The position numbers were made by a program, and so were the translations under genes. A DNA stretch of 64,000 nt from Nannocystis bainbridge (GTDB lineage: Bacteria > Myxococcota_A > Polyangia > Nannocystales > Nannocystaceae). The DNA lies in assembly GCF_028368995.1 (NCBI RefSeq), contig NZ_JAQNDL010000002.1:320001-384000 (forward strand). The letters are read 5' to 3'. Below, in pieces: positions 5,888-54,692 of this stretch (the first letter of the stretch is position 1; each line of letters opens with the position of its first letter). A model generated the notes under the pieces. It searched no databases. It was given only the letters and a program-made list of their open reading frames with translations, and was not told the origin of the DNA.

Positions 5888-6460
5888 ATGCGTCCCAACG
5901 TCGTCCTGTACCTCGCCGTGGCGCTCGCGGCGTCCTGTGGTGAAAAGGAGAAACAAGGCGTGGCCGCCACCGACGGCGACGCCGGGCCAGGGCCGATGGT
6001 GCCGATCGTGGACCCGACCGGCACGACCGTCGCTTCGACCACGACCGAGGCGGAGACCACGACGACCACGAGCACGACCACGACCGGCGATACGAGCACG
6101 ACCACCACGACGGGCGAGACGACCGGCCCGCCGCCAGCCGAGACCGAGGGCCAGCCGTGCATGTTCAACGCCAACTGCCCGGCGACGGCGCAGTTCTGCG
6201 TGTTCGGCGAGTGCCACGACGGCAGCGAGGGCGACCCGTGCGAGTTCCACGGCGAGTGCAGCGCCGCGGCGCCGCGCTGCATCATGGGCGTGTGCTACGA
6301 CGGCAGCGAGGGCGACGCGTGCAAGACGGACACCGATTGCTCCGAGAGCGCGACGCACTGCGTGTACGGGGCCTGCTACGACGGCAGCGAGTTCGACCCG
6401 TGCGAGTTCACCAAGGACTGCATGGACCTCTCGAGCTGCGAGAACAACCAGTGCGTGTGA
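5888..6460 (+). CDS. Lipoprotein with Thr-rich linker and Cys-rich repeats
   Basis: Lipobox LAASC, poly-Thr linker, repeated C-x5-C...CVxGxCxDGSEGDxC units. Confidence 0.8.
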   Translation: MRPNVVLYLAVALAASCGEKEKQGVAATDGDAGPGPMVPIVDPTGTTVASTTTEAETTTTTSTTTTGDTSTTTTTGETTGPPPAETEGQPCMFNANCPATAQFCVFGECHDGSEGDPCEFHGECSAAAPRCIMGVCYDGSEGDACKTDTDCSESATHCVYGACYDGSEFDPCEFTKDCMDLSSCENNQCV

Positions 6461-10771: not shown

Positions 10772-12829
10772 TCAGCGCGCGCCGAGGGAGCGCAGGAGCA
10801 TGGCGCGCACGGCCGTGAGGTCGGCGTCGACGCGGGCGCGCGGGTGCGCGGCCGCGGGGCCGTGCGGGACGGTGCGGAGCTGGTCCTGGCGGGTGACGTA
10901 GGTGACGCAGGTCGAGGAGCGGTTGCCGCGGAGCATGGCCAGGGCTTCGGCGAGGATGGTCGTCTGGTCCTCGGGACATGGTGTGAAGGACATGTCTCCC
11001 CAGGCAGGTAATGCGACGGCGGCGGCGGCGTCGGACACGAGGCCGGGGGCGTGGGCGCGCAGGTGGTCGAAGGCGCGGGCGAGGCCGGCCGAGTCGCCGG
11101 CGGCGGCGTGTACCAGGCCGAGCTCGACCCACGCGCCGGTGCGGGCCGGGTGGCTGGTGACGGCGTGCTGGAGGTCCACGAGGGCGCCTGCGAGGTCGCC
11201 GGTGGCCGCGCGGGCGCCGGCGCGGTGGGCGTAGACGGCCGGGCCGACGGTGCCGCGCATCTGGGCGATGCCGGCGGCGGAGACGGCGAGGGCGCCAGCG
11301 GGGTCGCCTGTCCGCTGGGACAGGAGGGTGAGGCCGACGTAGGCCCAGCGGGTGCGCGGGTTGAGGGCGATCGAAGCCTCGAGGTCGGCGCGGGCGCCGG
11401 CGTCGTCGCCGAGCCACATCCGCAGCTCGCCGCGGTGGGCCAGCGGCAGGGAGGAGCGCGGCCAGCGGGCGCAGGCGGCGTCGAGCAGGGCGAGCGCGCG
11501 GGCCGGGTGGGCGCTGCGGATCGTCTGCAAGGCGTGGCGCGAGGCGTGGCGCACACCTGTCCGTGTGGACAGGCGCTTGAGGACATGTCCGTCGTGCCAG
11601 GTAGCGAACGGCGAGCGGTTGCAGCCCATGCGCGCGAGGGCGTCGCGGGTGGCGTCGACCAGCGGGCCCTGGCGGTCGGCGGCGAGGGCGGCGGGGGCGA
11701 GCGGGGAGACCTCGGCGAGGGCCTCGGCGAACTCCTCGATCTGCCGCAGGTTGACGGGGGCGTCGGGGGCGGGGCGCTCGCCGGCAGCGGCGAGGAAGCG
11801 CAGCATCCAGGCGACGAACAGGTAACCATCGCCGATCGCGGTGGCGCGGGTCAGCGCGGCGTGGGCAGGGTCCCAGGCGCCGCGGCAGATCAGCGCCTCG
11901 GCGCGCGACAGCTCGGCGGCCGGATCGGGGACCTGGCAGGCGAGCTCGAGCTCGCGGAGGGCGGGGTCGTGGTGGCCGTCCGCGAGCAGGAGCTGGCCGC
12001 GGATCCTGCACGCGCCAGCGCGACCGCGAGCGCCAGGGATGGCTTCGGCGCGGGCCAGGGCGGCCTGGCGATCGCCTGTCCACAGGGACATGTCGGCGAG
12101 CGCGAGGGCGACGGGCGGGTCGTCGGGCTGCAGCGCCAGAGCGGCCTCGCCGTGACGGGCGGCGCCTCTGAAGTCGCCGGTCTCGAGCAGGGCGAACATT
12201 GCGGCGCGGCGGTAGAAGGCAGCGTCGCCCGCCGGGGCGAGGCGCAGGGCGGCGGCCAGCTCGACGCCGCAGGCGTGATCGTGCCCGGCGCGGGCCAGGG
12301 CGGTCGCCAGCTCCATGCGCAGCTTGGCCGAGTCGGGGGCGCGCTGCAGGCCGCGGCGGGCGGCGACGATGGCGAGCTCGAGGTCGCCGCCGCGCAGGTG
12401 CATCTGCGCCTCGAAGGCGTCCCAGGTCGGGTCGGTCGGATCGGCGGCGCGGCCGACCGCGATCGCGGCCGCGACCTCGCGCTCCCAGCCGAGCGCGCTG
12501 GCGTAGCCGACAGCGCGGGTGGCCGCGGCGCGGGTGGCCGCGGGTGCGGCTCGGGCGGCGGCGGCGAGGGCGTCGAGGCTGCGCTGATAGTCGTGCGTGG
12601 CCCGCAAGATCGCGGCGGCGGCGAGGGCGACGGCGGCGTCGTCGGGCCTGTCCCCCAGGGCAGCTTCGGCGGCCGCGCGGGCGCGGGCGAGCTGGCCGTG
12701 ACGAGCCAGGGCGACGGCCCGCAGCAGGGCACCGCGGGCGCCGAGGCGCGGCTCGTCGGCTTCGAGGTCGCCGGCGTCGAGCGCGGCCTGAAGGCGCAGC
12801 GCCAGCTGCGGGCTCGCCGTGCGGTTCAC
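10772..12829 (-). CDS. Tetratricopeptide-repeat protein
   Basis: Many TPR units (e.g. AHRGELRMWLGDDAGARADLEASIALNP). GTG start is preceded by AGGAG. Confidence 0.8.
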   Translation of the reverse strand: MNRTASPQLALRLQAALDAGDLEADEPRLGARGALLRAVALARHGQLARARAAAEAALGDRPDDAAVALAAAAILRATHDYQRSLDALAAAARAAPAATRAAATRAVGYASALGWEREVAAAIAVGRAADPTDPTWDAFEAQMHLRGGDLELAIVAARRGLQRAPDSAKLRMELATALARAGHDHACGVELAAALRLAPAGDAAFYRRAAMFALLETGDFRGAARHGEAALALQPDDPPVALALADMSLWTGDRQAALARAEAIPGARGRAGACRIRGQLLLADGHHDPALRELELACQVPDPAAELSRAEALICRGAWDPAHAALTRATAIGDGYLFVAWMLRFLAAAGERPAPDAPVNLRQIEEFAEALAEVSPLAPAALAADRQGPLVDATRDALARMGCNRSPFATWHDGHVLKRLSTRTGVRHASRHALQTIRSAHPARALALLDAACARWPRSSLPLAHRGELRMWLGDDAGARADLEASIALNPRTRWAYVGLTLLSQRTGDPAGALAVSAAGIAQMRGTVGPAVYAHRAGARAATGDLAGALVDLQHAVTSHPARTGAWVELGLVHAAAGDSAGLARAFDHLRAHAPGLVSDAAAAVALPAWGDMSFTPCPEDQTTILAEALAMLRGNRSSTCVTYVTRQDQLRTVPHGPAAAHPRARVDADLTAVRAMLLRSLGAR

Positions 12830-13059
12830 CGGCTGCCGCTCCTGCGAGTCCCCGGCGCAGGAGATGACGTCAAGGCGGAGGGCCGCGGCCGATCGAACTG
12901 CGTCGAGCGCGGGCGAGCGACAGGGGGCCGCGGGAGCGATGGTTCGCATCGAATCCCGGGCGAACGGACCGCTCTGGCGATCACGCGAGGCGAGTGTGGG
13001 CTCGGCGTCGCCCCGGTCGTCGTCGCGGGCGCGAGGTGGGCGGCCGGCGAGCGCATGGC

Positions 13060-15303
13060 TCAAGGGACAGGTTGCATGGCCGCGAACCCGTGGGCGCGCA
13101 CGTAGTTGATGTGCATGCCCTTACAGACATGTTCATGAGAGCATGTCTTGCAGCGCAGGCTCTTGACGTGGAAGCCGTCGTCGATGAAGCGGCGGGCGTA
13201 GCGGAAGATCTCGAGGCCGCCGTCGGGGCCGAGCTGGGCGGCGTCGAACACCGGCGGGCGCTCGCGCGGCGGCCGGCCGGCGATGCACGCGGGGACGGCC
13301 TCGACGGGCACCGGGGGCCGGAGGGCGGCGAAGAAGGCCGGGAGGTCGAGGTCGAGCTCGGCCGACTCGGTGAGGCGCTCGCGCGCGGGCTGGCGCAGGA
13401 CCAGGCGCGGCGGGGCAGCCTCCAGGGCGAGCAGCCAGGCCTCGGCGGCGCGCGACAGCAGGAGCACGACTTCGAGGTCGAGGGGGAGGTCGAGCAGCGC
13501 GGCGGCGGCGGCAGGGTCGGCGACGACGACGCGGACCAGGCGCTTGCCGGCGATCGATGGCTGGCCTTCGGGACCTGTCGTGGAGGACATGTGCGAGAGC
13601 CGGGCGATCAGGGCCGCGGGGTCGGCGAGCTCGAGCTCGAGCTCGGGGACTTCGGGGTAGTCGGCGGCGAGGGCCTCGGCGGCCGCGAGGTCGGGCGCGA
13701 CCAGCCACAGCGCGCGGGGCCGGGCCGCCGCCGCGAGGGCGCGGGCGTCGAGGCGCGGGCGCGCGGGTGGCTGCGACGCGCCGGCGCCGAGCAGCGGGAG
13801 GCGGAAGCGGCGGGGCGGCGGGTTCGCGGTGACGCCCGGCCGGGTGGCGGGAAGGACATGTCCCGAGAGACTGGTGGTGACGGGGGCCGGCGACGAGATG
13901 GCGGGAGGGACATGTCCCGCGGGACCGGTGGTGACGGGGGCCGGCGACGAGATGGCGGGAGGGACATGTCCCGAGGGACTGGTGGTGTCCAGGACCGGCG
14001 ACGAGATGGCGGGAGGGACATGTCCCGAAGGACTTGTCGACGTCGTATCGTGGTCCATGACGGCGAGGGCGCCTGGGCCGCGGTCGGTCGCGCGCGGGTC
14101 CGGGAGCTCGACGCGCCGCGCGTCGCGGGCCTCGGCCATGCCGGCGGCGGCCTCGTCGGCGGTGCCGGCCCACGCGTCGAGGCTGTCCTCGGGGACATGT
14201 CCTGAAAACCCGTCTTCAAAGCTGTCCTCGGGGACATGTCCCGAGAGGCCGGCGGCCAGGGCCCGCTCGGCGAGCACGCGGTGCAGGCGGGCGGCGGCGT
14301 GCTGGCGGCTGGCCGGGTCGCCGCCGTAGGCGACGGGGGCGTGATGCTCGGCGCCGGCGTCGATCCGCAGGACCTCGAAGCGCTGGCCGGCGAGGGCGGC
14401 GCGGACCTCGTCGAGGTGGTCGCACAGCGGCTCGAGGTAGCAGTGCTTGCAGCGCTCGGGGGCTCGGCAGTCGAGCGGGATGTCGTGCTCGAGCAGCAGC
14501 GCGTACTCCTCCTTGCGCCCGCGGACCTCTTCGATCAGCTTGTGCGGGTCCTGGATCAGGTCCTCGAAGCCCTCGAGGTGCTGCGGCGGAAATCGGTTGA
14601 GCCAGACGTGGACGCCGGGCCGGCGTGCGTAAGCGAAGGCCTCGAGCAGGTAGGGGCGCATGGCCTCGAGGTCGTAGAAGAGGACCTCGCGGCCCTCGCT
14701 GTAGGCGCGGCCGAACGGGATGACGTGCAGCAAGTCGAACTCGCGCACGCCCATGGCGGTGAAGGTGGCCATGAGCTCGGGCAGCTGCTTGACGTTGCCG
14801 CGGTTGACGCAGACGTCGATGTTGACGACGGGGCGACCGTCGGCGAGCGCGCCCTGGAGCCCCTTGACCTCCTCGTCGAAGGCGCCCTTGGTGCCGACGA
14901 GGGCGTCGTGGATCCGGGCGTTGGGGCCGTGGATCGAGAACGTGATCTCGCTGAGGCCGGCGTCGAGGGCGGCCCGCAAGAAGGCCGGATAGGCGAACAT
15001 GCGGCCGTTGGTGACGGTCTGGATCTTGCGATAGCCGGCGCGCCGGCCGAGGCGCACGAAATCGACGAAGTTGGGGTGGATGGTGGGCTCGCCGCCGGAG
15101 AGGATCAGGCGAGTGGCGCCGCGCCGGCGTCCGTCGAGGATCTGGGCCTTGATCTCGTCGCGGTCGCGGTTGGTGCCGTCGTGCGTGTGGGCGTCGAGGC
15201 AGAACACGCAGCGGTCGTTGCAGTCGAACGTCAGCCGCACCCAGTTGCGCCGCTCGTGCGCGGCCTCTTCGTGCTGCACGGCGGTGGCGGGGAGAGCGTC
15301 CAT
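13060..15303 (-). CDS. Radical SAM protein (HxsC-like) with repeat-derived linker and C-terminal Cys motif
   Basis: CNDRCVFC, SGGEPT, TNGR; internal CRAPERCKHCYLEPLC and C-terminal CKTCSHEHVCKG. Confidence 0.85.
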   Translation of the reverse strand: MDALPATAVQHEEAAHERRNWVRLTFDCNDRCVFCLDAHTHDGTNRDRDEIKAQILDGRRRGATRLILSGGEPTIHPNFVDFVRLGRRAGYRKIQTVTNGRMFAYPAFLRAALDAGLSEITFSIHGPNARIHDALVGTKGAFDEEVKGLQGALADGRPVVNIDVCVNRGNVKQLPELMATFTAMGVREFDLLHVIPFGRAYSEGREVLFYDLEAMRPYLLEAFAYARRPGVHVWLNRFPPQHLEGFEDLIQDPHKLIEEVRGRKEEYALLLEHDIPLDCRAPERCKHCYLEPLCDHLDEVRAALAGQRFEVLRIDAGAEHHAPVAYGGDPASRQHAAARLHRVLAERALAAGLSGHVPEDSFEDGFSGHVPEDSLDAWAGTADEAAAGMAEARDARRVELPDPRATDRGPGALAVMDHDTTSTSPSGHVPPAISSPVLDTTSPSGHVPPAISSPAPVTTGPAGHVPPAISSPAPVTTSLSGHVLPATRPGVTANPPPRRFRLPLLGAGASQPPARPRLDARALAAAARPRALWLVAPDLAAAEALAADYPEVPELELELADPAALIARLSHMSSTTGPEGQPSIAGKRLVRVVVADPAAAAALLDLPLDLEVVLLLSRAAEAWLLALEAAPPRLVLRQPARERLTESAELDLDLPAFFAALRPPVPVEAVPACIAGRPPRERPPVFDAAQLGPDGGLEIFRYARRFIDDGFHVKSLRCKTCSHEHVCKGMHINYVRAHGFAAMQPVP
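13843..14040. repeat. In-frame 54-bp tandem repeat (about 4 copies) carrying GGACATGTCC
   Basis: CATG cores at 13857, 13911, 13965 and 14019; encodes (S/A)GHVPPAISSP-type repeats. Confidence 0.9.
14182..14248. repeat. In-frame 39-bp duplication carrying TGTCC-TCGG-GGACATGTCC
   Basis: Cores at 14196 and 14235; encodes SGHVPEDS twice. Confidence 0.85.
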
Positions 15304-15362
15304 TCCGGGCCAATCGTACCCGGCGCCCCGCGCAGGCCGCAAGCGTGCTAACGTCGCCAGCC

Positions 15363-17858
15363 GTGCGCCCCGGCCGCGTCCTCGTCGTCCATCCGCCCGT
15401 GTCGGTGGCGCGGGACTTCATCGATTACCCGTACTTCGTCGACCTCGGGGCGGTGCAGCTGGCGGCGGTGCTCGAGGCCCGTGGGATCGCGTGCGACCTG
15501 GTGGATGCGTACGCGCTGCCGGAGCAGCGCGAGGGGCTGCGCGGCGCGGAGGACGTGGGGGCGAGCGAGCCGCGAGGGCCGGAGACCGTGAGGTCCGCGG
15601 CGGGCGAGTCGCAAGCGACGGAGAGCGAGCGAGCGGGCGAGGTGCGGCACGCGGCGTCGTCGATGCACTGGCGCAGCGACGGGCGGGCGCACCTGGGGGC
15701 GACGGTGGCGGCGACGCTGGCTGCCTGTGCACGGGACGTCGCGGCGGTCGTGGTCGCGGTCACGCCGTTTCACCGGCCGCCGGCGCGCGACGATCTGCTC
15801 GGCGAGCTGCTCGCGGGCCTGCGCGCGCGCCACGGGGCGGCGGTGCCGATCGTGCTGGCCGACTGCTACCAGTCGGGGCAGCACTACGTGGCGGCGCCGC
15901 AGCTGCTCGCCAGCTACCCGGAGGCGGACGCGTACGTGCAGTTCGAGGCCGAGGTGACGGTGCCGGCGCTGCTGCAGGCGTTCTTGGCCGGCGGGCCGGG
16001 GCCGCGCGGCGTGCACCGGGGCGAGCAACCTGTCCTCGAGGACATGCCCGTTCCGGCATGGTCCAAAGTCAACCTCGAGGCGTACCACGAGTTCCGCGCG
16101 GCGGTGGTCCGCGGGCTCGGGCGCGGCGGCTGGGCGTTCCCCATCGGCGGGCGCACGCTGCCGGCGGTGACGAGCCGCGGCTGTCCGTTCCAGTGCGCGC
16201 ACTGCAGCTCGAACCCCGACGTGGAACCGGGCCGGCCGAAGACGCAGCGGCGCCACGACCCGGCCGGGCTGCGGCGGATGCTGACGGCGCTGGCGCAGGA
16301 GCACGCGGCCGAGCGGGTGTTCATCCTCGACGAGCTGATCAACGTGCACCCGGCCCACTTCGATCATGTCCTGGAGGCCATCGGGGCGCTCGGGCTGGGC
16401 TTCGAGCTGCCGAACGGGCTGCGCGCCGATTACCTCGAGCCGCGCCACTTGCAGGCGATGCGCGGGCGGATCACGACGCTGAGCGTGAGCGCCGAGAGCG
16501 GGGTGCAGCGGGTGGTCGACGAGGTGGTCGGCAAGCGGCTCGACCTGGCGGCGATCGTGCGCGCGGCCGAGTCGGCGGCGGCCGCCGGAGTGCCGCTGAT
16601 GATCCACTACATCATCGGCCAGCCGGGCGAGTCGGCGGCGGAGATCAACGCGACGCTGAGCTTCGCGCTGGATCTCTGGGACAGGTTCAAGGCGTGGCCG
16701 GCGGTGCAGTTCGCGACCCCGCTGCCGGGCACGCGGCTGGCCCGCGCGCTGCCGCTGGCGCCGCCGCCGGCCGATCACGACTGGGGGCCGCGGTTCCAGC
16801 GGGCGCCGACCGGGGCGACGGTGCCGGCGGCGCTGCTCGAGAAGTTCCGCTGGACGTTCGAGCAGCGGCTGCGGGCGTCGCAGGGGCCGCAGAAGCTGGT
16901 GATGAACGCGACCTACGCGTGCAACAACCATTGCAGCTTCTGCGCGGTCGGGACGCGGTCGCAGCTGCACGGCGACGGCGAGCGCCTGCGCGAGCAGCTG
17001 AGCCACTACCGCAAGCAGGGGGTCGAGCTGCTCGACATCGACGGCGGCGAGCCGACGCTGCACCCCGATCTGCTGGGCCTCATCCGTCACGCGCGCGCGC
17101 TCGGCTACCGGGCCATCAACGTGACGACGAACGGGCGGCTGTGCGCGTACGAGGCGTTCGCGGCCCGCCTCGTCAACTCGGGGCTGTCGTCGCTGCTGTT
17201 CAGCGTGCACGGGGCCGACGCCCGCACGCACGCGCAGAACGTCGGGGTCGCGGAGGCCTTCGAGCAGACGCTGGCGGGGGTGCGCCACGCGGTCCGCCTG
17301 GCGCCGCGCGGGGTCGAGCTCGGCCTCAACGTGACGATCACGAAGCACAACGAGGGGCAGCTCGATGCCATCACGGCGCTGGCGTGGTCGCTCGGGCTGC
17401 GCTGGGTGAACTACCAGTTCCTGACGCCGTTCGGGCGGGCGACGGCGATGCTGGCGCCCGACACGGCGCGCGCGGCGGACAGCCTGCGGGCGGTGATCGA
17501 GGCGTGGCAGGACCGGATGAAGCTGCAGGTGATCAACCTGCCGTTCTGCTTCCTGCCCGGGCACGAGGCGCTGCTGCAGGGCGACCTCGGCAAGCTCGAG
17601 CGCCACATGGCGTTCGTCAACAACGAGACGGTCAACCTGGCGCAGTACCTGGCCGAGCGCCGGGTCCGCAAGCCGGTGTGCGCGTCGTGCCCGCACGCGT
17701 GCTTCTGCGGCGGGTTCTACGAGCTCGACGAGGTGCCCGAGCCGCCGTGGCTGATCGCGCCGGAGGACCTGGTGCGGCCGCTGACCGATCCGCGGCGCCA
17801 CGAGTCGGTGCCGGCCGAGCTGCGCGAGCGCCTGCGCAAGCGCGCGGGGCCGGCGTGA
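15363..17858 (+). CDS. Fusion of B12-binding-type radical SAM and a second radical SAM domain
   Basis: N-terminal VLVVHPP; TSRGCPFQCAHC and ESG (class B type); second CNNHCSFC with DGGEPT and TTNGR; C-terminal CASCPHACFCGG. Alternative start at 15345. Confidence 0.85.
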   Translation: MRPGRVLVVHPPVSVARDFIDYPYFVDLGAVQLAAVLEARGIACDLVDAYALPEQREGLRGAEDVGASEPRGPETVRSAAGESQATESERAGEVRHAASSMHWRSDGRAHLGATVAATLAACARDVAAVVVAVTPFHRPPARDDLLGELLAGLRARHGAAVPIVLADCYQSGQHYVAAPQLLASYPEADAYVQFEAEVTVPALLQAFLAGGPGPRGVHRGEQPVLEDMPVPAWSKVNLEAYHEFRAAVVRGLGRGGWAFPIGGRTLPAVTSRGCPFQCAHCSSNPDVEPGRPKTQRRHDPAGLRRMLTALAQEHAAERVFILDELINVHPAHFDHVLEAIGALGLGFELPNGLRADYLEPRHLQAMRGRITTLSVSAESGVQRVVDEVVGKRLDLAAIVRAAESAAAAGVPLMIHYIIGQPGESAAEINATLSFALDLWDRFKAWPAVQFATPLPGTRLARALPLAPPPADHDWGPRFQRAPTGATVPAALLEKFRWTFEQRLRASQGPQKLVMNATYACNNHCSFCAVGTRSQLHGDGERLREQLSHYRKQGVELLDIDGGEPTLHPDLLGLIRHARALGYRAINVTTNGRLCAYEAFAARLVNSGLSSLLFSVHGADARTHAQNVGVAEAFEQTLAGVRHAVRLAPRGVELGLNVTITKHNEGQLDAITALAWSLGLRWVNYQFLTPFGRATAMLAPDTARAADSLRAVIEAWQDRMKLQVINLPFCFLPGHEALLQGDLGKLERHMAFVNNETVNLAQYLAERRVRKPVCASCPHACFCGGFYELDEVPEPPWLIAPEDLVRPLTDPRRHESVPAELRERLRKRAGPA

Positions 17859-18157: not shown

Positions 18158-20407
18158 TCAGCGCGGTCGCTGCAGCTCGGCGAGGGCGCGCCCCAGGACC
18201 TCGTCACGGCCGGCGCGCACGCCGGCGATGGTGGAAGAGACGGCCACGTCGGGCGTGAGCGGGGTGTAGGGATCGCCGCCGCTGGCGCGCGCCTGGGCAG
18301 CGCGGGTGAAGCTGACGACCAGGCCGCCCGGCAGGCGGAACGGCTGCCCGTCGAAGCTGCCGCCGGCCGTGTCGCTGCCGACGAGCAGGGCGCCGTGGCG
18401 CGCGCGCAGGGCGTCGGCCACCGGCTCGACGTTCCGCGTCGCGCCGGCGTCGACGAGGATGGCGAGGCGGGCAGGCCAGGCCGGCGGGTCGGCGTGGGAC
18501 AGCTGGCGCAGCTCGTCCCACGCGTGCTGGCCCCCGGGCCAGGTGGTGTGGCGGTCGACGACGGTCTGCGGCGCGAGCAGGTGACGGGCGAGCGGATCGC
18601 CGACCCCACCGCGGAGATCGAGGACCGCGGCGTCGGCACGGGCGAGGCGCGCGGCGGGGAGGTCGGCGAGTTCGAGCCCGGACAGGTCGAGGTAAAGCAC
18701 GCCGGGGGCGAGCTCGCGGACCCCGGGGCCGACGTGGAGCTGCGGCGCGAGGGCGACCGGGACGGTGGCGACGGCGACCTCGCGCGCCGTGCCGTCGACG
18801 CCGCGGACCACGAGCTGACGCGGCACGCCGGTCTGGCCGCGAGCCAGCCGCGACAGCGCCCACAGCGTGCGCCGCTGCTCGCTGGCGCCGGGGGCGGTGG
18901 CGCGGGCGTCCGCCAGGGTCTCGGCGATGGCGACGCCGTCGAGGGCGAGGACGACGTCGCCGACGCGCAGATCGGGGGCGCGCGCGGGATCGACGGCGGT
19001 GATGACGACCTGTCCTTCGAGCCAGGTCCAGCGCAGGGCCAGGCGGTGGCCGAGCTCGACGTCGTTGTCGACGTGGACCTGGCCGGCGGTGTCGCCGACG
19101 GCGGCGAGGAGCTGCCAGACGACCTCGCGCAGCCCGAAGCGATCGCGGGCGACGGCGGCGCGGGAGAAGCTGTCCCGTAGGACATGTTCCCAGGCGGCGC
19201 TGCTTCGGGCCACGTGGGGCGAGAACTGGGTCATGTGCGCGCCGAGCAGGGCGATCGCGGTCAGGCGGGTCAGGCGGTCGGCGAGGTCGGGGCTGAACTC
19301 GGGCGGCCGGGCCAGCGGCAGGTCGGGGCGCGACGGCGGGGGCAAGCTGGCGGCGGCGGCCCACACGGCGAACGGCATGGTCGCGACGAGGCCGCGGCCG
19401 AGCGCGATCGGGTGGCGGACGGCGGGGTCGGGGACGGGGGTGTCCTCGGGGACATGTTCGAGGAGCCAGCTGCGATCGACGCGCTCGCTGGTGGGCCCGT
19501 GACGCCACACGAGCGCGCGCTCGGCCGCGTCGGGGCGGGCGATGGGCGTGAGGTCGGGGGCGCCGAGGCCGACGCGCAGCAGCGGGGCCCGCGGCTGGAA
19601 GGCCCGCTCGAGCGCGGCGGCCAGGGCGGCCGGACTCTCGGCGCGCAGCGCCGCCTGGACGCCGGCGAGCGCGAGCCGGTTCCAGCGGGCGCCCCCGGCC
19701 TCGTCGCCGGGATAAAACGATCGGACATGTCGCAAGAGCCAGGTGTAAGCGAGCAGGTTGTCGAGCTCGCGGGCGGTGAGCGGAGCCGGCGGTTCGCAGC
19801 CGGGGCAGGCCGGGCCCACGCGCTCGAGGGTGACGCCGTCGAGCTCGACGCGCGTTGCGCCGCCGAGGCGGACGGTGAGATCGAGGTGGTCGGCGTCGAC
19901 GGGGACGTCGAACACGAGGTCGCGCAGGGCCCAGCGGTGGTCGTCGAGGCGGATCGCGGCGCCGTCGACGACGCGCTGGTGCTCGCCGACGCGGGCGCGC
20001 AGCTCGAGAACAGGCGAGGCGCCGGTCTGCCGCTCGACGCGGGCATAGGCGAACAGGCGCACGCGCTGGCCGCGGAGGTCGTCGGTGGGGACGAGCCGGG
20101 TGAGCCGAGCGTCGCGCGGGAAGCCGTCCGGCGGGGCAGAGAGGGCGATCGCAGCGCAGCCGTCGAGGCCGGGCAGGAGCTCGCGGGCGGTGCCGTCGGC
20201 GTCGAGCAGGCTCCATCCGGCCAGCGGATCGGGGCGGGCCTCGAAGCTGCCGTTGGCGAGCGGGACGCCGCCGATCGCGGTCGGTCCGCAGGCGTAGGAG
20301 AGGGTGGCCGATGGGACATGTTCTTCGGGGCAGGTGTCGTCGCAGGCGAGCACGCCGAGCGCAGCGAGGAGCATGAGGAGGCGGGACGGAAGCAGGGACG
20401 GCATCAT
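18158..20407 (-). CDS. S41-peptidase-like lipoprotein (CBM-like, PDZ and tail-specific protease domain), probably degenerate
   Basis: Lipobox VLAC, NGSFE carbohydrate-binding-like domain, PDZ (LRVGDVVLALDG), VLDLRGG, LVGSDTAGG, PDVAV. Confidence 0.7.
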   Translation of the reverse strand: MMPSLLPSRLLMLLAALGVLACDDTCPEEHVPSATLSYACGPTAIGGVPLANGSFEARPDPLAGWSLLDADGTARELLPGLDGCAAIALSAPPDGFPRDARLTRLVPTDDLRGQRVRLFAYARVERQTGASPVLELRARVGEHQRVVDGAAIRLDDHRWALRDLVFDVPVDADHLDLTVRLGGATRVELDGVTLERVGPACPGCEPPAPLTARELDNLLAYTWLLRHVRSFYPGDEAGGARWNRLALAGVQAALRAESPAALAAALERAFQPRAPLLRVGLGAPDLTPIARPDAAERALVWRHGPTSERVDRSWLLEHVPEDTPVPDPAVRHPIALGRGLVATMPFAVWAAAASLPPPSRPDLPLARPPEFSPDLADRLTRLTAIALLGAHMTQFSPHVARSSAAWEHVLRDSFSRAAVARDRFGLREVVWQLLAAVGDTAGQVHVDNDVELGHRLALRWTWLEGQVVITAVDPARAPDLRVGDVVLALDGVAIAETLADARATAPGASEQRRTLWALSRLARGQTGVPRQLVVRGVDGTAREVAVATVPVALAPQLHVGPGVRELAPGVLYLDLSGLELADLPAARLARADAAVLDLRGGVGDPLARHLLAPQTVVDRHTTWPGGQHAWDELRQLSHADPPAWPARLAILVDAGATRNVEPVADALRARHGALLVGSDTAGGSFDGQPFRLPGGLVVSFTRAAQARASGGDPYTPLTPDVAVSSTIAGVRAGRDEVLGRALAELQRPR

Positions 20408-20804
20408 TATTAAAACTAAGTCCGGCGAAGGGCGAGGTGAGCACGGTACCACGACCGCGGGCCGTGGAGCGCCCCATGCGGGCCAACCGTGGCTCCATCG
20501 GCAGGCATCTTATGGGTCGCGTGGGCTGCGCCGCTGAACGGTGATATCGACGAGCGATTGTTGCGGCTGTCTGGCCGCGCGCGCGAGCGATGGTGGGCGC
20601 GACGCCTGCATGGGCCCCGAGGCCGCAGGGCGACAGCACACGGGCGGGGCAACTGGCGGCGAGATCCGGGCGCAAGGGCTGCCGCTGCGCCGATGCGGGC
20701 GGGGCGAGTTGGTGGCCCTGCGTGGACGTGAGGGCGAAGCTCGCGTCGCGGCGCTGGCGGGCGCTGAGCCGCGGGCGCAGCGGTGCGCGCCTGGGCGATC
20801 CAGG

Positions 20805-21004
20805 CGCGCGCCGCTGCTTCGTCGCGCGTGGTCCCAAATGCATGTCTTTGGGGACATGCCCTCGGGGTCATATGGACGGCGCGTTCAATGTCGTTATTTC
20901 AGGGGCGCGCCGCTGCTTCGTCGCACGTGGTCCCAGAGTCATGTCTTTGGGGACATGACCTCGGGTGCATGTGGGTGGATCGGTCGATGTCGTGTCATTT
21001 CGGG
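20805..21004. repeat. 99-bp intergenic tandem duplication, each copy with a phased element array
   Basis: GCGCGCCGCTGCTTCGTCGCRCGTGGTCCCA...CATGTCTTTGGGGACATG occurs twice; perfect units at 20843 and 20942. Confidence 0.85.
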
Positions 21005-21423: not shown

Positions 21424-22608
21424 ATGTTGCGTACCATTCTTGTATTGTTCCCCGCGCTCGCGTTTTCGCTGCCCGTCACGGCGACGGCCGCGGACGAAGC
21501 CCGGTGGGGCGGTAGTCATCAGGGCTACGGTCAGAACGAATTGCTCGAGCTCGAGACCTGCTTGGCCGACGTGGAGCAGCTGACCCAGAACCGTTCGTGC
21601 ACGATCCTCGACGAGGAGGAGTGCCTCGCCGCGTGCGACGTGGCGGCGGACTCCGAAGACGCCAATCGGTCCTGCCGCAGCTCGTGCGTCGACGCGGGCG
21701 TGGCGGTGTGTGAGCGCTGGGGCGGCAGCCAGGGCTTCGACCAGCACCAGGGCGTGATGCCGGGCAAACCCACCGGGCCGGGCGTTGACCTGACGCCGGA
21801 CCAGAACGTCGGCCAAGGCTTCGGCAAGGACATGGGCCAGGGCTTCGGCAAGGACGTCGGCAAGATCGAGCAGGAGCTGCTGCAGGAGCTCGAGCAGGAC
21901 CTCGACCAGAACATCGGCAAGATGGTCGAGCAGGACATCATCCAGGAGCTCGAGCAGGACATCGTCCAGGACCTGGACCAGAACATCGGCAAGAACGTCG
22001 GCAAGCTCGAGCAGGAGCTCGAGCAGGACATCCTGCAGGATCTGGAGCAGGACCTCGACCAGACGATCGGCAAGGACGTCGGCAAGAACGTCGGCAAGCT
22101 CGAGCACGAGCTCGAGCAGGACATCCTGCAGGAGCTCGAGCAGGACCTGGGTCAGACGATCGGCAAGGACATGGGTCAGACGATCGGCAAGCCGGGCTTC
22201 GGCAAGCGCTGGGGTAACCAGGGCTACGGCCAGCAGGGCTACGACCAGGGCTTCGGCAAGGATGTCGACCAGGGCTTCGGCAAGGACGTCGACCAGGGCT
22301 TCGGCAAGGACGTCGACCAGGGCTTCGGCAAGGACGTCGACCAGGGCTTCGGCAAGGACGTCGGGCAGGGCTTCGGCAAGGACGTCGGCCAGGGCTTCGG
22401 CAAGGACCAGACCATCGGCAAGCCGGGCTACGGCAAGCGCTGGGGCAAGCCCGGCTACAACCAGGGCTTCGGCAAGGAGCCGACGCCGGTCACCCCGGGC
22501 CAGTACGATCAGGAGCTGATCTACGTGCTCGGCTCGGAGTGCGCGATGCTGGTGCTCGACCAGACGCAGGGCGTCGGTAAGGGCGTCGGCAAGCACGTCG
22601 GCAAGTGA
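21424..22608 (+). CDS. Secreted Gln/Lys/Asp-rich repeat protein
   Basis: Signal peptide, Cys-containing N-domain, xEQD/xxGK tetrapeptide repeats and ten QGFGK units. Confidence 0.8.
   Translation: MLRTILVLFPALAFSLPVTATAADEARWGGSHQGYGQNELLELETCLADVEQLTQNRSCTILDEEECLAACDVAADSEDANRSCRSSCVDAGVAVCERWGGSQGFDQHQGVMPGKPTGPGVDLTPDQNVGQGFGKDMGQGFGKDVGKIEQELLQELEQDLDQNIGKMVEQDIIQELEQDIVQDLDQNIGKNVGKLEQELEQDILQDLEQDLDQTIGKDVGKNVGKLEHELEQDILQELEQDLGQTIGKDMGQTIGKPGFGKRWGNQGYGQQGYDQGFGKDVDQGFGKDVDQGFGKDVDQGFGKDVDQGFGKDVGQGFGKDVGQGFGKDQTIGKPGYGKRWGKPGYNQGFGKEPTPVTPGQYDQELIYVLGSECAMLVLDQTQGVGKGVGKHVGK
22243..22408 (+). repeat. Coding 24-bp tandem repeat (7 copies, DQGFGKDV type)
   Basis: GACCAGGGCTTCGGCAAGGACGTC repeated in frame. 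Confidence 0.9.
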
Positions 22609-29435: not shown

Positions 29436-29632
29436 TGACATGTCCTAAGGGACATGTGTGTGTTTGCGAAGCGTGAGGTTGGGCGGCGACATGTCCCGAT
29501 GGACATGTTAAGGTCGAGGTCCGATCTGACCCGGAGGACAGGGGATAGATTCGGGCGCCGGTGGGGTGGCCCGGAGGACAGGTGTCATCGCCGCGACGGC
29601 GGGTGAGTGTCGCAGCATGTCCCGGAGGCCAG
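29436..29632. repeat. Intergenic cluster of TGTCC-N4-GGACA elements and variants
   Basis: Perfect units at 29441 and 29492; variants at 29527, 29567 and 29618; between convergent genes. Confidence 0.8.
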
Positions 29633-30495: not shown

Positions 30496-33108
30496 ATGGG
30501 AGTCACGCACACCGCCACGCGCGAGGCGCTCCTGCGCCGCCAGGGGCTGGTGTTCGTGGCGCCGGGCGCGGCGACCGCGAGCGAGCGGCACCTGCAGGCG
30601 ATCGAGCTCGAGCTGGCGCAGCTCGGGTACGTGATCTCGGTGCGGCTGCGGCAGCGGCTGGCGACGCTGACGCCCGAGGAGCTCGCGCCGCACCCGCGCC
30701 TGGTCGCCGGCGCGCTGGCGGCCCAGTTCGGCGGCAATGTCCCCTACACGCCGCTGTTCCGCCGCTTCCCCGAGGATGTCCCGAAGGACACGCGCGACGT
30801 CTACCTGCACAAGGTGCTGTGTCACTTCCTGCAGACCGAGGGCCAGCCGTGCGTGTTCTGCCGCCGCGTCGGCACGACCCACGTGCTGAGCCCGTGCCTG
30901 CACGTGGTGTGCGACCACTGCTTCGACGGCGCCAACTACAGCGCGTGCCCGGTGTGCGAGCACCACGTCGACCGCAGCTCGCCGTTCTTCAAGCCGGGGC
31001 TGTTCCTGGCGCGCAGCCTGCCGAAGGAGAAGGTCCGCTTCAAGCTGCTCGACCTCGGCGAGGACCTGCCGGCCGCGGCGCGAGAGCTGTTCGAGTCGTT
31101 CTGCGCGCGCACGCAGGTGATGTCGCCGGTCGACGCGACGGACCTCGGAGCGATTGTCGACGATTTCGCCGAGCAGGTGCTGGCGTGGCTGCCGGACAAG
31201 ATCGCGGTGCGTGAGAACGTGGCGCGGATCTTCGGGGCGCTGCTGCGCAAGTGCAACGCGCCGGCCACGTTCGCGATGGCACAGGCGCACCTGGCGACGG
31301 CGACCGACGTGCTGCGCACGCTGGCGGTTTATTCGGGCGCCGATCCGTCGTTGCAGGGCGCGACCGTGAAGCGGCTGGTGGCGCGGCCGAAGGAGGGCGC
31401 GGCCGAACCCAGCGGGCTGGCCGCCCGGATCGAGAAGATCTTCGCCGGCGGCCGGCGACTGCCCAAGGCGGAGACGGTGTCGGTGCCGATCCACGCGTAC
31501 CGCTTCAAGGTGGGGCCGCTGCGCCGGCCGCTGCGGCGGGCGCTGCTGGCCCACCTCGAGGCGATGCACCCCGACGGGCTGGTCGAGGACATGCTGCGCC
31601 ACCGCTCGTACTGGCAGTGGGTCGGCAAGTTCCTGCATCCGCACGAGTTCGCCGAGCAGTTCCCGCAGGTGGCGCGCGCGTTCGCGGTGGTGCGCAAGAA
31701 GGCGCCCGACGGCACGCCGGCGCCGCGGTTCATCGGCTTCCACGCGGCGATCGAGGCGGCGGCGCGGGCCGGCGACGCGCCGGCGATGATCGAGAAGCTG
31801 CGGCAGCGACCGGGCGAGCTCGGGCGCCGCTTCGACCACGCGCTGCGGATCGCGGGCGCCGACGCGGCGGCGCAGGACGTGGTGATCTCGGCGTTCGTCG
31901 CGGCGGCGCCGCGGCTGGCGAACCCGCTGCTGCTGACGTTGCACGGCCACCTGCCGACGCGCGGGCGGCCGGCGGCGGTGCGGCTGTTCTGGCCCAAGGG
32001 ACAGGTGGCGAAGGGGGTCTCGGCGCCGGACGTCCGGCCCACGCTGGCCCCGCAGGCGATCGCCGCGGCCGGGCAGGTGGTCGAGCGCGAGCTGCTGCGC
32101 CGCCTGGCCGACAAGCCGAAGTTCGCCACCTGCGTGCTCGACGAGGGGCTGCGCGACGTGATCGTGCCGTTCAACGAGCGCACGGCCAGCCGCGCCGCGG
32201 TGTCGCTGTCGCGCGGTACGAAGGTGGCGCTGCCGGCCGGCGAAGTGGTGCGCCTGTTCCTCCACTGGTGTCAGCCGGAGGTCGGCGACTCCACCGATAT
32301 CGACCTCTCGGTCGCCTTTTACGACGAGCAATGGGCCTACGTCGGGGTGTGCTCCTATTATCAATTGCGATTCGACGGGGCCGACAAGCGGCCGATCGCG
32401 CAGAGCTCGGGCGACCTGCGCGACGCGCCGTACCCCGACGGCGCGGCCGAGTTCGTCGACGTGCACCGCGAGCGCGCCCGGGCCCAGGGCATCCGCTACG
32501 CGGTGATGGTGGTCAACAACTACGCTGGCATGCCGTTCTCGAAGCTCGAGCGGGCGTGGGCCGGGATGATGCTGCGCACGGACCTCGGCGGCCGGCAATT
32601 CGACGTCCGCAAGGTCGAGCTCAAGTTCGATCTGCAGGGCGAAAACGGGGTGTTCATGCCGCTGGTGCTCGATGTCGCCGAGTCGACGATGCACTGGCTC
32701 GACGTGTACACGACCGGTGAATTCGAGTTCAACAACGTGGAGACCTCGAACAAGGCGATCACGAAGATCTGCCCGGAGATGATCGGCTACTTCGCCAGCG
32801 GGGCCCGGATCTCGATGTACGAGCTGGCGCTGCTGCACGCGGCGGCCCGCGGCCAGCGGGTGGTGGTGCGTGGGCCAGACGGGCTGCGTGGGTTCGAGCG
32901 TGGGGCCGATGAATCGGCGGAGGCGTTCTTGCGGCGGCTCCGCGCCGGTGAGGGGGCGAGCCCGGCGGAGCTGCCCGCGGCCGAGGGAGCGCCGGTGTTC
33001 GCGGCGCTGCTGCACGGCGACGTGGAGCTGCCGGCGGGCAGCGTGTGCTACGCGCTGTTCCGCGAGCGGGTCATCGCTCCGATCGCGGCCAGCGACCTGC
33101 TGACGTGA
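30496..33108 (+). CDS. MXAN_6230/SCO0854-type prokaryotic RING protein with C-terminal TerD-like domain
   Basis: RING CVFC...PCLHVVCDHC...CPVC; RPGELGRRFDH; TerD-like DIDLSV...SGDLRDAP...AAEFVDV. Confidence 0.85.
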   Translation: MGVTHTATREALLRRQGLVFVAPGAATASERHLQAIELELAQLGYVISVRLRQRLATLTPEELAPHPRLVAGALAAQFGGNVPYTPLFRRFPEDVPKDTRDVYLHKVLCHFLQTEGQPCVFCRRVGTTHVLSPCLHVVCDHCFDGANYSACPVCEHHVDRSSPFFKPGLFLARSLPKEKVRFKLLDLGEDLPAAARELFESFCARTQVMSPVDATDLGAIVDDFAEQVLAWLPDKIAVRENVARIFGALLRKCNAPATFAMAQAHLATATDVLRTLAVYSGADPSLQGATVKRLVARPKEGAAEPSGLAARIEKIFAGGRRLPKAETVSVPIHAYRFKVGPLRRPLRRALLAHLEAMHPDGLVEDMLRHRSYWQWVGKFLHPHEFAEQFPQVARAFAVVRKKAPDGTPAPRFIGFHAAIEAAARAGDAPAMIEKLRQRPGELGRRFDHALRIAGADAAAQDVVISAFVAAAPRLANPLLLTLHGHLPTRGRPAAVRLFWPKGQVAKGVSAPDVRPTLAPQAIAAAGQVVERELLRRLADKPKFATCVLDEGLRDVIVPFNERTASRAAVSLSRGTKVALPAGEVVRLFLHWCQPEVGDSTDIDLSVAFYDEQWAYVGVCSYYQLRFDGADKRPIAQSSGDLRDAPYPDGAAEFVDVHRERARAQGIRYAVMVVNNYAGMPFSKLERAWAGMMLRTDLGGRQFDVRKVELKFDLQGENGVFMPLVLDVAESTMHWLDVYTTGEFEFNNVETSNKAITKICPEMIGYFASGARISMYELALLHAAARGQRVVVRGPDGLRGFERGADESAEAFLRRLRAGEGASPAELPAAEGAPVFAALLHGDVELPAGSVCYALFRERVIAPIAASDLLT

Positions 33109-36520: not shown

Positions 36521-36870
36521 AGTCCGCGCAATCTCGCTCGCTGACGGAGCATCGTCTGCCATCGCGGCCATGCGCGAGAGGACATGTCCGAATGGACATG
36601 TGAATGGGCGAGAGTCTGCGCGATCTCGCTCGCGACCATCGTCCGCCATCTCGGGCATGGGCGAGAGGACATGTCCGAATGGACATGTGAAATGTCGATG
36701 GTTCGCGCAATCTCTCGCGGACGGAGCATTCTCCTCTATCGCGAGCATGGTCGAGAGGACATGTCCGCATAGACATGTTAAGGGGCGAAGGGCCGCGCAA
36801 TCTCGCTAGTGATCCTCGCCCGCCATCCCGGGCATGCGCGAGAGCACATGTCCGGGTGGACATGTCTATA
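36521..36870. repeat. Degenerate 87-90-bp tandem repeat (4 copies), each with three phased CATG cores
   Basis: Cores at 36569/83/97, 36656/70/84, 36746/60/74 and 36833/47/61. Confidence 0.9.
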
Positions 36871-38805: not shown

Positions 38806-39540
38806 TCAGGAGGGGTCGAGATCGGGGTAGCGGCGGAAGATGCCGTGCTCGTTGAAGGCCAGGCGCCGCGGGGAGGCCAGGTACGCGGCGATGCGCGGGC
38901 GGGCGGCCACGCGGTCGCCCAGGCGCAGCAGCGCGGGCGTGCCGCGGGCGTGGCGGGCGAACGCGTGGGGGAAGGCGTACTCGAGGCCGAGCAGGGCCTG
39001 CAGCAGCGACAGGTCGGCGTGGCAGCAGGCCTCGCCGAGCAGCCACGGGCCGCCGCTGCGCTGCAGCACGCGGTCGAAGTAGGCCAGGAACTTGGGCAGC
39101 CGGGCGTCGCGGAAGGCGGCGGCTCGCAGCGCGGCGGCGTCGCGCTGGTCCTCGTAGTATTGCGCGCTCGAGATCGGGTGGTGGGTGTCGTGGGCCTCGG
39201 CGACGAGGTCGCTGATCGTCAGTTGCAGCTGCATGGCCTCGGCGCGGCCGCCATCTGTCCCCGGGGACAGGTCGTGACGATCGCCGAGGAAGCCGCAGAT
39301 GTTGGCGGTCTGGGCGATCACGAGGTCGCCGGCGCGGAGGATCGGCGGGGCGAAGGCGGGCAGGCCGGGCAACGACTCGAGGGCGCGCACGATGGCCGCC
39401 TCGCCGCCGCCCTCGGAGGCGGGCCGGCGGGCGACGTCGAGGTAGGGCGCGCCGGCGTCCTCGCAGACGAGGCGGACGAACTCGCCGCGGCCGGGGATGC
39501 CGGGCCAGTAGTAGAGCTCGTAGAGATCGGCGGTGGGCAT
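38806..39540 (-). CDS. Glutathione S-transferase
   Basis: LYYWPGIPGRGEFVRL, FAPP, QTANIC and ADLSL. Confidence 0.9.
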   Translation of the reverse strand: MPTADLYELYYWPGIPGRGEFVRLVCEDAGAPYLDVARRPASEGGGEAAIVRALESLPGLPAFAPPILRAGDLVIAQTANICGFLGDRHDLSPGTDGGRAEAMQLQLTISDLVAEAHDTHHPISSAQYYEDQRDAAALRAAAFRDARLPKFLAYFDRVLQRSGGPWLLGEACCHADLSLLQALLGLEYAFPHAFARHARGTPALLRLGDRVAARPRIAAYLASPRRLAFNEHGIFRRYPDLDPS

Positions 39541-49085: not shown

Positions 49086-49169
49086 TGTTCGTAAGAGCAT
49101 GCTCGCCAGGACATGTCCTTGAGGGCATGCTCTTGTGGGCATGCCCATTCGGGCATGTCCCGAGAGTCA
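49086..49169. repeat. Phased 14-bp array with five RRRCATGYYY decamers
   Basis: CATG at 49098, 49112, 49126, 49140 and 49154, between convergent genes. Confidence 0.9.
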
Positions 49170-54245: not shown

Positions 54246-54428
54246 GCGCCCGCGCCTCCGCCGCGGCGCGCCCCAGGACGGCACAAGGGCGGACGGCTCG
54301 GCGAATTTTTTCGTGAGCGAGCGCAGGTCGGCGCGCAGGGCGGAGACGAGCAGCCGAAAACAAGTACGACGAATCCGTCGCCGAGGCGGAGGACGCGCTC
54401 GTGCTCGCGGGGTCGTCCGCCCGGGGTG

Positions 54429-54525
54429 CAATGATGACAGCAGAGAAAGTCCGAGGCCCGCTGTCATTGTTGCGGTGCCGTCATTGTTGCGGTGCCGTCA
54501 TTGTTGCGGTGCTGTCATTGTCGCC
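54429..54525. repeat. 17-bp direct repeats (about 3.5 copies) with an upstream inverted partial copy
   Basis: GTCATTGTTGCGGTGCC at 54463, 54480 and 54497 (last base T), partial at 54514; inverted GCAATGATGACAG near 54428. Confidence 0.8.
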
Positions 54526-54692
54526 AGCGCGGCCGGACGGCTGTCTCGGCGAGCGCGGCGAGGGCTGGATCTTGCGCGGCGTGAACTCCCCCCGGCGTGG
54601 GCCGAACACGGGAGGGTGGCGCGGCTGTGGGGGCACGGGCGAGCGACGGCCGTCGCGGGGTCCCAGGAGCACGCGCACGACGAACGCGAGGA

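Follow-up and report, generated by a model that had tools for sequence, protein, structure and literature searches.

The site in the radical SAM gene

We analysed a 64,000-nucleotide stretch of the Nannocystis bainbridge genome (the window; RefSeq assembly GCF_028368995.1, contig NZ_JAQNDL010000002.1, positions 320,001 to 384,000), in which a radical SAM gene carries a cluster of rare codons that spell the tetranucleotide CATG several times. An earlier note on this DNA had proposed that a repeated motif is written into conserved coding sequence at this site by point substitution rather than by insertion, as a second code overlaid on the genes in the manner of DNA-uptake sequences. The gene and the site are as follows.

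13060..15342, minus strand: radical SAM gene (760 aa); a radical SAM domain at the N-terminus of the product is joined by a variable linker to the conserved Cx2Cx5Cx3H region at its C-terminus, where the site lies
13108..13152, no strand: motif site of two abutting degenerate cores, overlaid on codons K732-H744 of the minus-strand gene

The Pfam Radical_SAM match covers residues 37-181 of the product, and a scan of the product against NCBIfam gave no model at the curated cut-off. The C-terminus reads ...LRCKTCSHEHVCKGMHINYVRAHG..., and the motif site lies inside CKTCSHEHVCKGMH. The codons of the site are AAG ACA TGC TCT CAT GAA CAT GTC TGT AAG GGC ATG CAC. The A/T-ending codons ACA, TCT, CAT, GAA, CAT and TGT are present as the earlier note had claimed, in a gene whose GC content at third codon positions (GC3, on which our gene calls are also based) is 0.91. 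Such codons make up 6 of 14 in the site as against 9% in the background (binomial P = 8e-4), and their genome-wide shares are small (ACA, 0.13%; TCT, 0.08%; TGT, 0.13%; CAT, 0.22%). Three CATG tetranucleotides start at 13114, 13128 and 13142, in the 14-bp phase described before, and a fourth, previously unlisted, starts at 13134.

This pattern might be an artefact of chance or codon usage, the three CATGs being a mere by-product of encoding the peptide T-C...H-V...G-M-H. T-C, H-V and G-M are indeed dipeptides compatible with CATG, and the conservation of Cys and His has its reasons in the protein. However, CATG triples spaced 14+14 occur 77 times in the predicted coding sequences (CDS) of the whole genome, whereas eight of nine control spacings gave none and the ninth gave three. 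Moreover, orthologues from other genera have the same Cys/His scaffold without the CATG triple, and all six congeners retain the rare ACA codon. The phased-triple counts and the orthologue alignment refute the artefact, which we regard as scarcely credible.

The 14-bp phase reflects a palindromic unit, TGTCC-N4-GGACA, to which the first core of the site (13116-13129, TGCCC TTAC AGACA) has two mismatches and the second (13130-13143, TGTTC ATGA GAGCA) has three. The site is a genuine but degenerate, weak and partly lineage-specific member of the TGTCC-N4-GGACA family, and the interest lies in that family rather than in the radical SAM site itself. Among nine other copies listed in the earlier note, eight are within one mismatch of the unit (perfect at 11558, 16031, 19171, 19441, 39256 and 60650; one mismatch at 27690 and 51593), but the copy at 7836 has two mismatches.

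A 14-bp unit in abutting arrays

The assembly, which is 11.05 Mb in size, 71.5% GC and 90% complete, contains 1987 perfect copies of TGTCC-N4-GGACA, compared with 0-16 copies when the arms are set 0-3 or 5-17 nt apart and with three for a reversed-pattern control. With at most one mismatch allowed, 6245 copies were found, versus 101-272 at the control spacings. This corresponds to one core (at most one mismatch) per ~1.8 kb, with copies on all contigs. The distances between CATG tetranucleotides have the same period: 3736 pairs lie 14 bp apart, versus 72 at 13 bp and 262 at 15 bp, with harmonics at 28, 42, 56 and 70 bp. There are 2066 CATG chains of at least two units, the longest having 12.

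Zero spacing between units is alone enriched. The sequence GGACATGTCC is the junction between two abutting units; only 33 of 956 occurrences are without a recognisable partner on both sides, a count at the level of control palindromes. Both these junctions and the 14-bp CATG phase are therefore consequences of units abutting head to tail with zero spacing. Within the unit, loop position 1 avoids A and position 4 avoids T, the centre being otherwise free. Because the flanks of the arrays are unique (82 of 4130 resemble any other flank), there is no larger element body. Recent slippage seems an unlikely route of array growth, since neighbouring loops differ. Across 100-kb bins, those at 1.1-1.3 Mb of contig C1 among them, the density of the motif ranges from 10 to 108 units per bin and correlates with GC content (r 0.33-0.63 per contig); bins with few units may represent either recent acquisitions of DNA or biosynthetic genes of great length.

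Position of the units relative to genes

Most of the family lies outside genes, at their 3′ ends, a fact that had escaped the earlier note. Genes were called by GC3 periodicity, a heuristic in which starts are especially uncertain; it gave 7612 genes and 81% coding sequence. The motif is ~7-fold denser outside genes than inside, and 78-97% of the arrays of at least three units are intergenic. Spacers of convergent gene pairs have 1.98 arrays per kb, those of tandem pairs 0.59 and those of divergent pairs 0.21; an array is carried by 48%, 17% and 8% of such spacers, respectively. The median separation of an array from a gene 3′ end is 48 nt, whereas from a 5′ end it is 239 nt. Arrays of this kind in the window include the following.

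29437..29631, no strand: intergenic array cluster of five cores between convergent genes; four congeners keep 2-3 cores aligned, with different loops
49098..49160, no strand: five-unit array in 14-bp phase between convergent genes
36522..36866, no strand: intergenic 87-bp tandem repeat, 3.9 copies, with three phased CATG units per repeat

A second intergenic tandem repeat, of 99 bp (20801-20993, 1.9 copies), likewise has phased CATG units in every repeat, and in the two repeats together each repeat unit holds 2-3 of them. Since these repeats contain arrays, whole arrays can be duplicated locally together with their surroundings. Elsewhere in the window, a 447-bp convergent spacer (54246-54692) is without a TGTCC-N4-GGACA unit and has a near-perfect 17-bp tandem repeat at 54463-54521 (3.5 copies, 97% matches).

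The coding population is nevertheless large. Predicted open reading frames (ORFs) hold 767 of the 1987 perfect units (39%), and a unit with no more than one mismatch is found in 21% of genes. In the three frames we counted 65-66, 286 and 416 perfect units where codon usage predicts 0.03, 0.16 and 5.13, an excess of 81- to ~2000-fold depending on the frame; the control spacings in CDS agree with the codon-usage expectation. The bias among frames follows codon compatibility and preference, as it does in uptake sequences. We rejected a concentration of coding copies at gene 3′ ends, given that 8.6% lie within 150 nt of the stop codon versus 12.8% expected (counts by decile of relative position: 110, 80, 75, 84, 92, 75, 75, 80, 59 and 37). 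A function at the peptide level was also rejected, because all three frames are used and the conservation falls at synonymous sites.

Origin of the coding copies

Relatives were fetched by protein similarity and comprised Nannocystis punicea, N. radixulma, N. sp. RBIL2, N. pusilla and N. exedens. A tblastn search identified 18 orthologous C-termini of the radical SAM gene, 17 of which were codon-aligned; L021 (31% identity) was left out. The earlier note had proposed to check whether the motif position is free of gaps, and all 17 orthologues align without gaps through Cx2Cx5Cx3H, with the Cx2Cx5C spacing intact. In the five congeners the site reads ACA TGT TCG TAC/TTC GAC CAT GGC/GTC TGC AAG GGC ATG, so that the rare ACA codon and a CATG triple in 14-bp phase are already present. 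The eleven more distant orthologues, including that of genome G009, have ACC, ACG, GCC and the like, and the CATG triple is absent.

Six or seven changes, all in one 18-nt stretch of the site, separate this genome from its congeners, and the sequence on either side is identical. The residue replacements (Y/F>H, D>E and G>V) all fall in the family-variable x5 stretch between the cysteines. The changes at the site are thus not synonymous alone. Four of the six atypical A/T-ending codons are private to this genome, and the A/T third positions common to all five congeners are the other two, 13144 (ACA) and 13129 (CAT before GTC). A burst of substitutions in the lineage of this genome was considered and not retained: the 18-nt site window is in the top 0.6-4% most diverged in the conserved domains of the gene, but it is not unique, with 6 differences where the windows reach a maximum of 6-8.

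The comparison was extended to 13 coding copies in the window, of which 12 align gap-free with at least one orthologue from another genus. The copies concerned, and four of them with their genes, are listed below.

10977, 11309, 11558, 11582, 12077, 12649, 13128, 16031, 16367, 30777, 31990 and 39256: coding copies gap-free against other genera
11558..11591, no strand: perfect core and GGACATGTCC junction inside the TPR gene 10772-12949 (minus strand); common to five congeners, loop variable
16031..16060, no strand: perfect core and phased CATG pair in the second radical SAM gene, 15345-17858 (plus strand)
30777..30790, no strand: perfect core in gene 30496-33108; perfect in five of five congeners
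39256..39269, no strand: perfect core in gene 38806-39540 (the GST of the earlier note); gap-free against the G024 orthologue

Little weight is given to the TPR-gene alignments with other genera, which are only 29-41% identical. The copy at 16031..16060 aligns gap-free with G009 and three other genera, each of which is without the motif. At 30777 an orthologue from another genus has GGTCCCCAAGAACA, with no gap, where this genome has TGTCCCGAAGGACA; several outgroup sequences resemble proto-sites in this way. Gains are also seen within the genus. At 7679, G003 has a perfect core by way of four changes and no gap, and four others have 3-4 mismatches; at 60625, G001 has one mismatch, again gap-free, and the other congeners have 3-5. 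In the five genomes searched, no outgroup orthologues were found for genes 60440-62245 and 49174-51378 (sites 60650 and 50782), and gene 18158-20407 and the S9 peptidase gene had matches within the genus only.

The linker of the radical SAM protein has a different history, which involves two repeated segments.

13845..14034, minus strand: tandem repeat in the radical SAM linker with an in-frame 54-bp unit (3.5 copies, 91% matches); indel-rich between species
14184..14240, minus strand: two perfect cores, at 14184 and 14223, both encoding GHVPEDS

Each 54-bp unit, which encodes ...SPSGHVPPAISSPAPVTT, carries one motif, GGGACATGTCCC, read G-H-V-P. The core at 14184 is part of a 36-39-bp segment that is absent from five of five congeners, an in-frame duplication, and the copy at 13576 falls within an indel-rich stretch of the linker. 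Because the copy number of the linker repeat varies among the five congeners, the motif also expands proteins by duplication. Two routes are apparent from the alignments, namely substitution in conserved domains and in-frame duplication in linkers.

These observations bear on the possibility that the coding copies are in-frame insertions of a small mobile palindromic element. Rickettsia palindromic elements, insertions that add residues to coding genes and are read in frame, would be the model. The resemblance is that of palindromic repeats in frame inside coding genes, and the linker copies, with their indel-rich surroundings, the 39-bp duplication unique to this genome and the 54-bp tandem repeat, could be accommodated. 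In contrast to the Rickettsia elements, the radical SAM site and 12 of the 13 tested copies add no residues, and the array flanks show no element body. Insertion is refuted at 13108-13152 by the 17 gap-free alignments and stands only for the linker copies; as a whole we consider it very improbable. The earlier claim of an origin by substitution rather than insertion accordingly stood for the site and for 12 of 13 coding copies but not for the linker copies, which are indels or duplications. On the sequence comparisons, we have shown that hundreds of ORF copies arose from substitutions, synonymous and non-synonymous, at tolerant positions without indels.

Conservation of the motif at the nucleotide level

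The five congeners were projected onto the window, each covering 32.6-47.8 kb at 84.5-87.0% identity. At the third codon positions of 29 coding units, the arms are 90.8% identical, the background 80.9% and the loops 63.8%. Among third positions that are A or T in this genome, identity is 89.2% in the arms (111 comparisons) versus 33.0% in the background (3297 comparisons). Of such positions, 16 of 23 in the arms are invariant, versus 122 of 687 in the background (odds ratio 10.6, p = 1.4e-7), and 14 of 17 when the linker is excluded. When all third positions are taken, 60 of 75 in the arms but 7 of 24 in the loops are invariant, against a background of 64%. The effect size is large. The invariance of arm A/T third positions so far above the background demonstrates that the motif is constrained as nucleotides.

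For 22 coding units an alignment of five or six species was available; of these units, 14 occur in every aligned species or in all except one, and 6 occur in a single species. Units in spacers stay in place, with their arms preserved from species to species, as the loops and flanks diverge, and where a spacer has no units here the spacers of the relatives are also without them. Once present, then, the arm bases were shown in these alignments to be conserved as nucleotides, and the 4-nt centre drifts. Change toward the consensus was counted in 7 of 17 mismatch columns and change away from it in 27 of 193 matching columns; these counts are given no weight because the cores were ascertained on those sequences. 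The overlaid nucleotide-level constraint that the earlier note had postulated is real, as judged from the coding excess over codon usage and from the synonymous-site conservation across the five congeners.

Taxonomic range

TGTCC-N4-GGACA is hugely over-represented in every genome of the genus that was searched: the 11 Nannocystis genomes have 114-2090 perfect cores each, versus 1-6 for the reversed-pattern controls. Among the 14 further genera of the family, two have 87 and 161 perfect cores and the remainder 0-8, and 16 genomes from other families likewise have 0-8 each. All 10 other genomes of the genus contain the paired form GACATGTC-N6-GACATGTC, as against 1 of 30 other genera. It is commonest in the present genome (223, versus 90-147 in five large congeners). 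G009 has 959 perfect units and only 24 paired CATG forms. This imbalance between units and pairs, together with the 87 and 161 units in two other genera, suggests that the word is older than the phased arrays.

Comparison with known repeat systems

Repetitive extragenic palindromic sequences and bacterial interspersed mosaic elements (REP/BIME) are extragenic and linked to a Y1 transposase, the REP-associated tyrosine transposase (RAYT). Like the Nannocystis units, they are short palindromes behind genes, often clustered and enriched between convergent genes. Unlike them, 39% of perfect Nannocystis units are in ORFs, the genome has no Y1_Tnp match, and the arms are held at the consensus without strong covariation.

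The closest analogue for the coding overlay is HIP1 of cyanobacteria (highly iterated palindrome 1, GCGATCGC). HIP1 is hyper-abundant, is found both in ORFs and between them, and is more strongly conserved between genomes than neutrality would predict; its function is unresolved, and chromosome-level roles have been proposed (PMC5861425); it has been linked to methyltransferases (PMC4390886) and to transformation (bioRxiv 10.1101/2024.09.10.611283). The Nannocystis motif is similarly a short palindrome, strongly over-represented in one clade (1987 perfect units here versus 0-16 at other spacings), located within and between ORFs and conserved between related genomes. However, HIP1 is a contiguous octamer, whereas the Nannocystis motif is an interrupted 5-N4-5 palindrome. 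Its 14-bp units abut in arrays that reach 12 units, and its density is ~7-fold higher outside genes, with a focus on 3′ ends.

The dRS3/NTS repeats of Neisseria resemble the gene-end arrays in being palindromes with a variable centre and many copies around genes. As described in PMC11893778, they have the form ATTCCC-N8-GGGAAT, are present in hundreds of copies clustered around genes and are read by the Ssn nuclease; NTS have oriented, non-palindromic flanks and are tied to a small GIY-YIG gene of the cd10448 type that is flanked by repeats. This genome has two GIY-YIG matches, the small one (107 aa) beside a RecQ-like gene. There is no motif in the immediate flanks of the small gene, the nearest cores being inside the upstream gene or beyond the downstream gene. 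From its own sequence, its product is tentatively taken as YhbQ-like. An Ssn-type nuclease partner is unsupported, given that the small GIY-YIG gene is not flanked by repeats.

Uptake sequences are known to form inverted pairs behind genes. The uptake signal sequences (USS) of Pasteurellaceae and the DNA uptake sequences (DUS) of Neisseria are like the Nannocystis motif in that their copies run to thousands, a substantial fraction of them within ORFs, their frames follow codon preference, and they are located at poorly conserved residues. One possible hypothesis, by analogy, is that the motif is a tag of self DNA: a protein would prefer motif-bearing DNA during uptake or recombination, and conspecific exchange would drive the motif into tolerant positions. 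Such a tag would be consistent with a core (at most one mismatch) every ~1.8 kb on all contigs, the restriction of the motif to the genus, the origin of copies by substitution, a frame bias (416, 286 and 65) that follows codon compatibility, and the lower density in low-GC 100-kb bins (r about 0.5). For USS/DUS, PMC2817400 describes a matching pattern, in which frame use is tied to codon preference and copies lie at poorly conserved residues. The likeness to uptake sequences drawn by the earlier note fits the evolutionary pattern. Genes for ComEC and DprA are present in this genome, but they also match in 10 and 11 of 14 control genomes and are therefore of little weight, and competence of the genus is here putative. 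The uptake signals known to us, furthermore, are asymmetric words that do not form abutting arrays of up to 12 units, whereas the Nannocystis unit is a palindrome in phased arrays. Strict zero spacing and the 10-fold contrast between convergent and divergent spacers would require extra assumptions. We consider the tag, taken alone, rather improbable.

What sets the Nannocystis family apart from HIP1, uptake sequences, REP/BIME and dRS3/NTS is a combination of three traits: the palindrome is interrupted, the units of its arrays strictly abut, and its intragenic copies are numerous and conserved. In the openly searchable literature, supplementary files excluded, we found no description of the motif or of repeats in Nannocystis or other myxobacteria.

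Double-stranded word or hairpin

The best explanation of these results, in which we have moderate confidence, is that a putative dimeric protein reads the unit as two duplex half-sites, and that selection for binding, or drive, keeps the arms at the consensus. The arms at consensus, the free centre, the two-fold symmetry and the strict zero-spacing phasing are the reasons for favouring this reading. The two 5-nt arms would be the double-stranded half-sites, and dimers would stack along abutting units; the MetJ-type operator arrays are a precedent for abutting palindromic boxes. Selection for binding, or a drive favouring motif-bearing DNA, would hold the arms at consensus wherever coding tolerates it. 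At the radical SAM site, the codons for the conserved Cys, Thr and Gly-Met-His may have offered CATG-compatible frames by chance, and the variable x5 residues may have been overwritten afterwards. We further speculate that the long arrays between convergent genes serve as gene-end boundary sites at the DNA level.

Several points weigh against this explanation. The motif-binding protein is putative, a deduction from patterns in the sequence. The conservation test covers one 64-kb window with 29 coding cores, GC3-based gene calls and five related, non-independent genomes, and biased repair could mimic selection. The cores of the site itself have two and three mismatches, and constraint there is shown only for ACA and one CAT. 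Other points fit a hairpin of the REP/BIME kind, in which adjacent arms, as RNA or single-stranded DNA, would pair into a stem of 5-10 bp closed by a loop of 4 nt; at gene ends such hairpins would stabilise or terminate transcripts, the coding copies being by-products. The gene-end location fits an RNA or terminator-type role as much as a DNA role, the arrays lying a median 48 nt from 3′ ends (239 nt from 5′ ends) and numbering 1.98 per kb in convergent versus 0.21 in divergent spacers. Covariation across N4 is small yet statistically real (z about 7) at two of the three variable positions: pairing is 0.484 versus 0.431 in shuffles and 0.630 versus 0.594, an excess that amounts to 4-5 percentage points, and 0.569 versus 0.563 at the closing pair, with no excess. 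In intergenic copies oriented with the upstream gene, G-T mispairs exceed A-C mispairs 1.26-1.39-fold (tandem, 702 versus 558; convergent, 644 versus 462), which would fit RNA stems that tolerate G-U but could alternatively come from transcription-linked C>T mutation. Stable folds are predicted for three intergenic arrays (z = -3.9 to -6.1) and for the mRNA strand of the site (z = -2.65).

The hairpin nevertheless meets with several difficulties. The covariation is far below that of a stem constrained by folding, and single-arm variants dominate. The stem sequence is itself palindromic and the arrays are strictly phased, neither of which an RNA stem requires. The loops show no strand asymmetry relative to transcription (for example, CGAA 92 versus TTCG 91). 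The coding copies are conserved yet show no asymmetry between G-T and A-C (813 versus 855), and the stem at the site has on the mRNA strand a C-A mispair, not a G-U pair. No T-run follows the units in the flank composition, an Rfam scan of the window gave no family at the gathering score, and RAYT (Y1_Tnp, PF01797) had 0 matches in this 90%-complete genome, 6 of 14 control genomes being matched. A variant in which CATG is the hairpin loop with covarying arms was rejected, as there is no covariation about the CATG centre and pairing equals the shuffled value at nine of nine distances. We therefore regard a hairpin as possible but unlikely, and we favour recognition of double-stranded half-sites by a protein, by analogy with what has been proposed for HIP1 and uptake sequences.

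A bolder version of the dimer explanation, which we regard as doubtful, is that the motif is a genome-wide DNA word, read by a putative dedicated protein as phased, stacking dimers, strongly enough to overwrite codons and amino acids in about one-fifth of the genes. Such a word might mark self DNA for uptake or recombination, or it might provide protein-based gene-end boundaries that replace classical terminators in this 72% GC genome.

Significance of the family

The radical SAM site illustrates that a signal at the nucleotide level can shape proteins, three residues having changed beside an iron-sulfur-type cysteine motif. The motif also accounts for clusters of rare codons in Nannocystis that otherwise resemble oddities of sequencing or annotation, and gene finders, codon-optimisation tables and scans of the ratio of non-synonymous to synonymous substitution (dN/dS) should mask motif sites in this genus. 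As with HIP1, the question is why a clade keeps thousands of copies of one palindrome, and the Nannocystis family is a clean system for it, with thousands of sites, strict 14-bp phasing and clear gains between sequenced species. The arrays are, in addition, candidate gene-end parts for the engineering of natural-product-producing Nannocystis.

Other features of the window

The two long radical SAM genes (13060-15342, minus strand, and 15345-17858, plus strand) stand back to back with almost no spacer according to the calls, so their starts are probably over-extended. The pair and the TPR gene are syntenic in the congeners. Within the ORF 5888-6460, a stretch of ~90-110 nt at ~6010-6150 matches dozens of unrelated loci in the five congeners at 72-87% identity; the ORF has only a sub-threshold Pfam match of a mucin-like, low-complexity kind, and the stretch is probably a recurrent low-complexity coding segment. 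Gene 21445-22608 contains nested coding repeats at 21806-22476 with periods of 12, 24, 69-72 and 93 nt, the 24-nt unit being present in 6.9 copies with 97% matches, and its product is highly repetitive. Finally, GC skew is positive in all 2-kb bins but one and the cumulative skew climbs steadily to 3.3 across the whole window, which places the window well inside one replichore.

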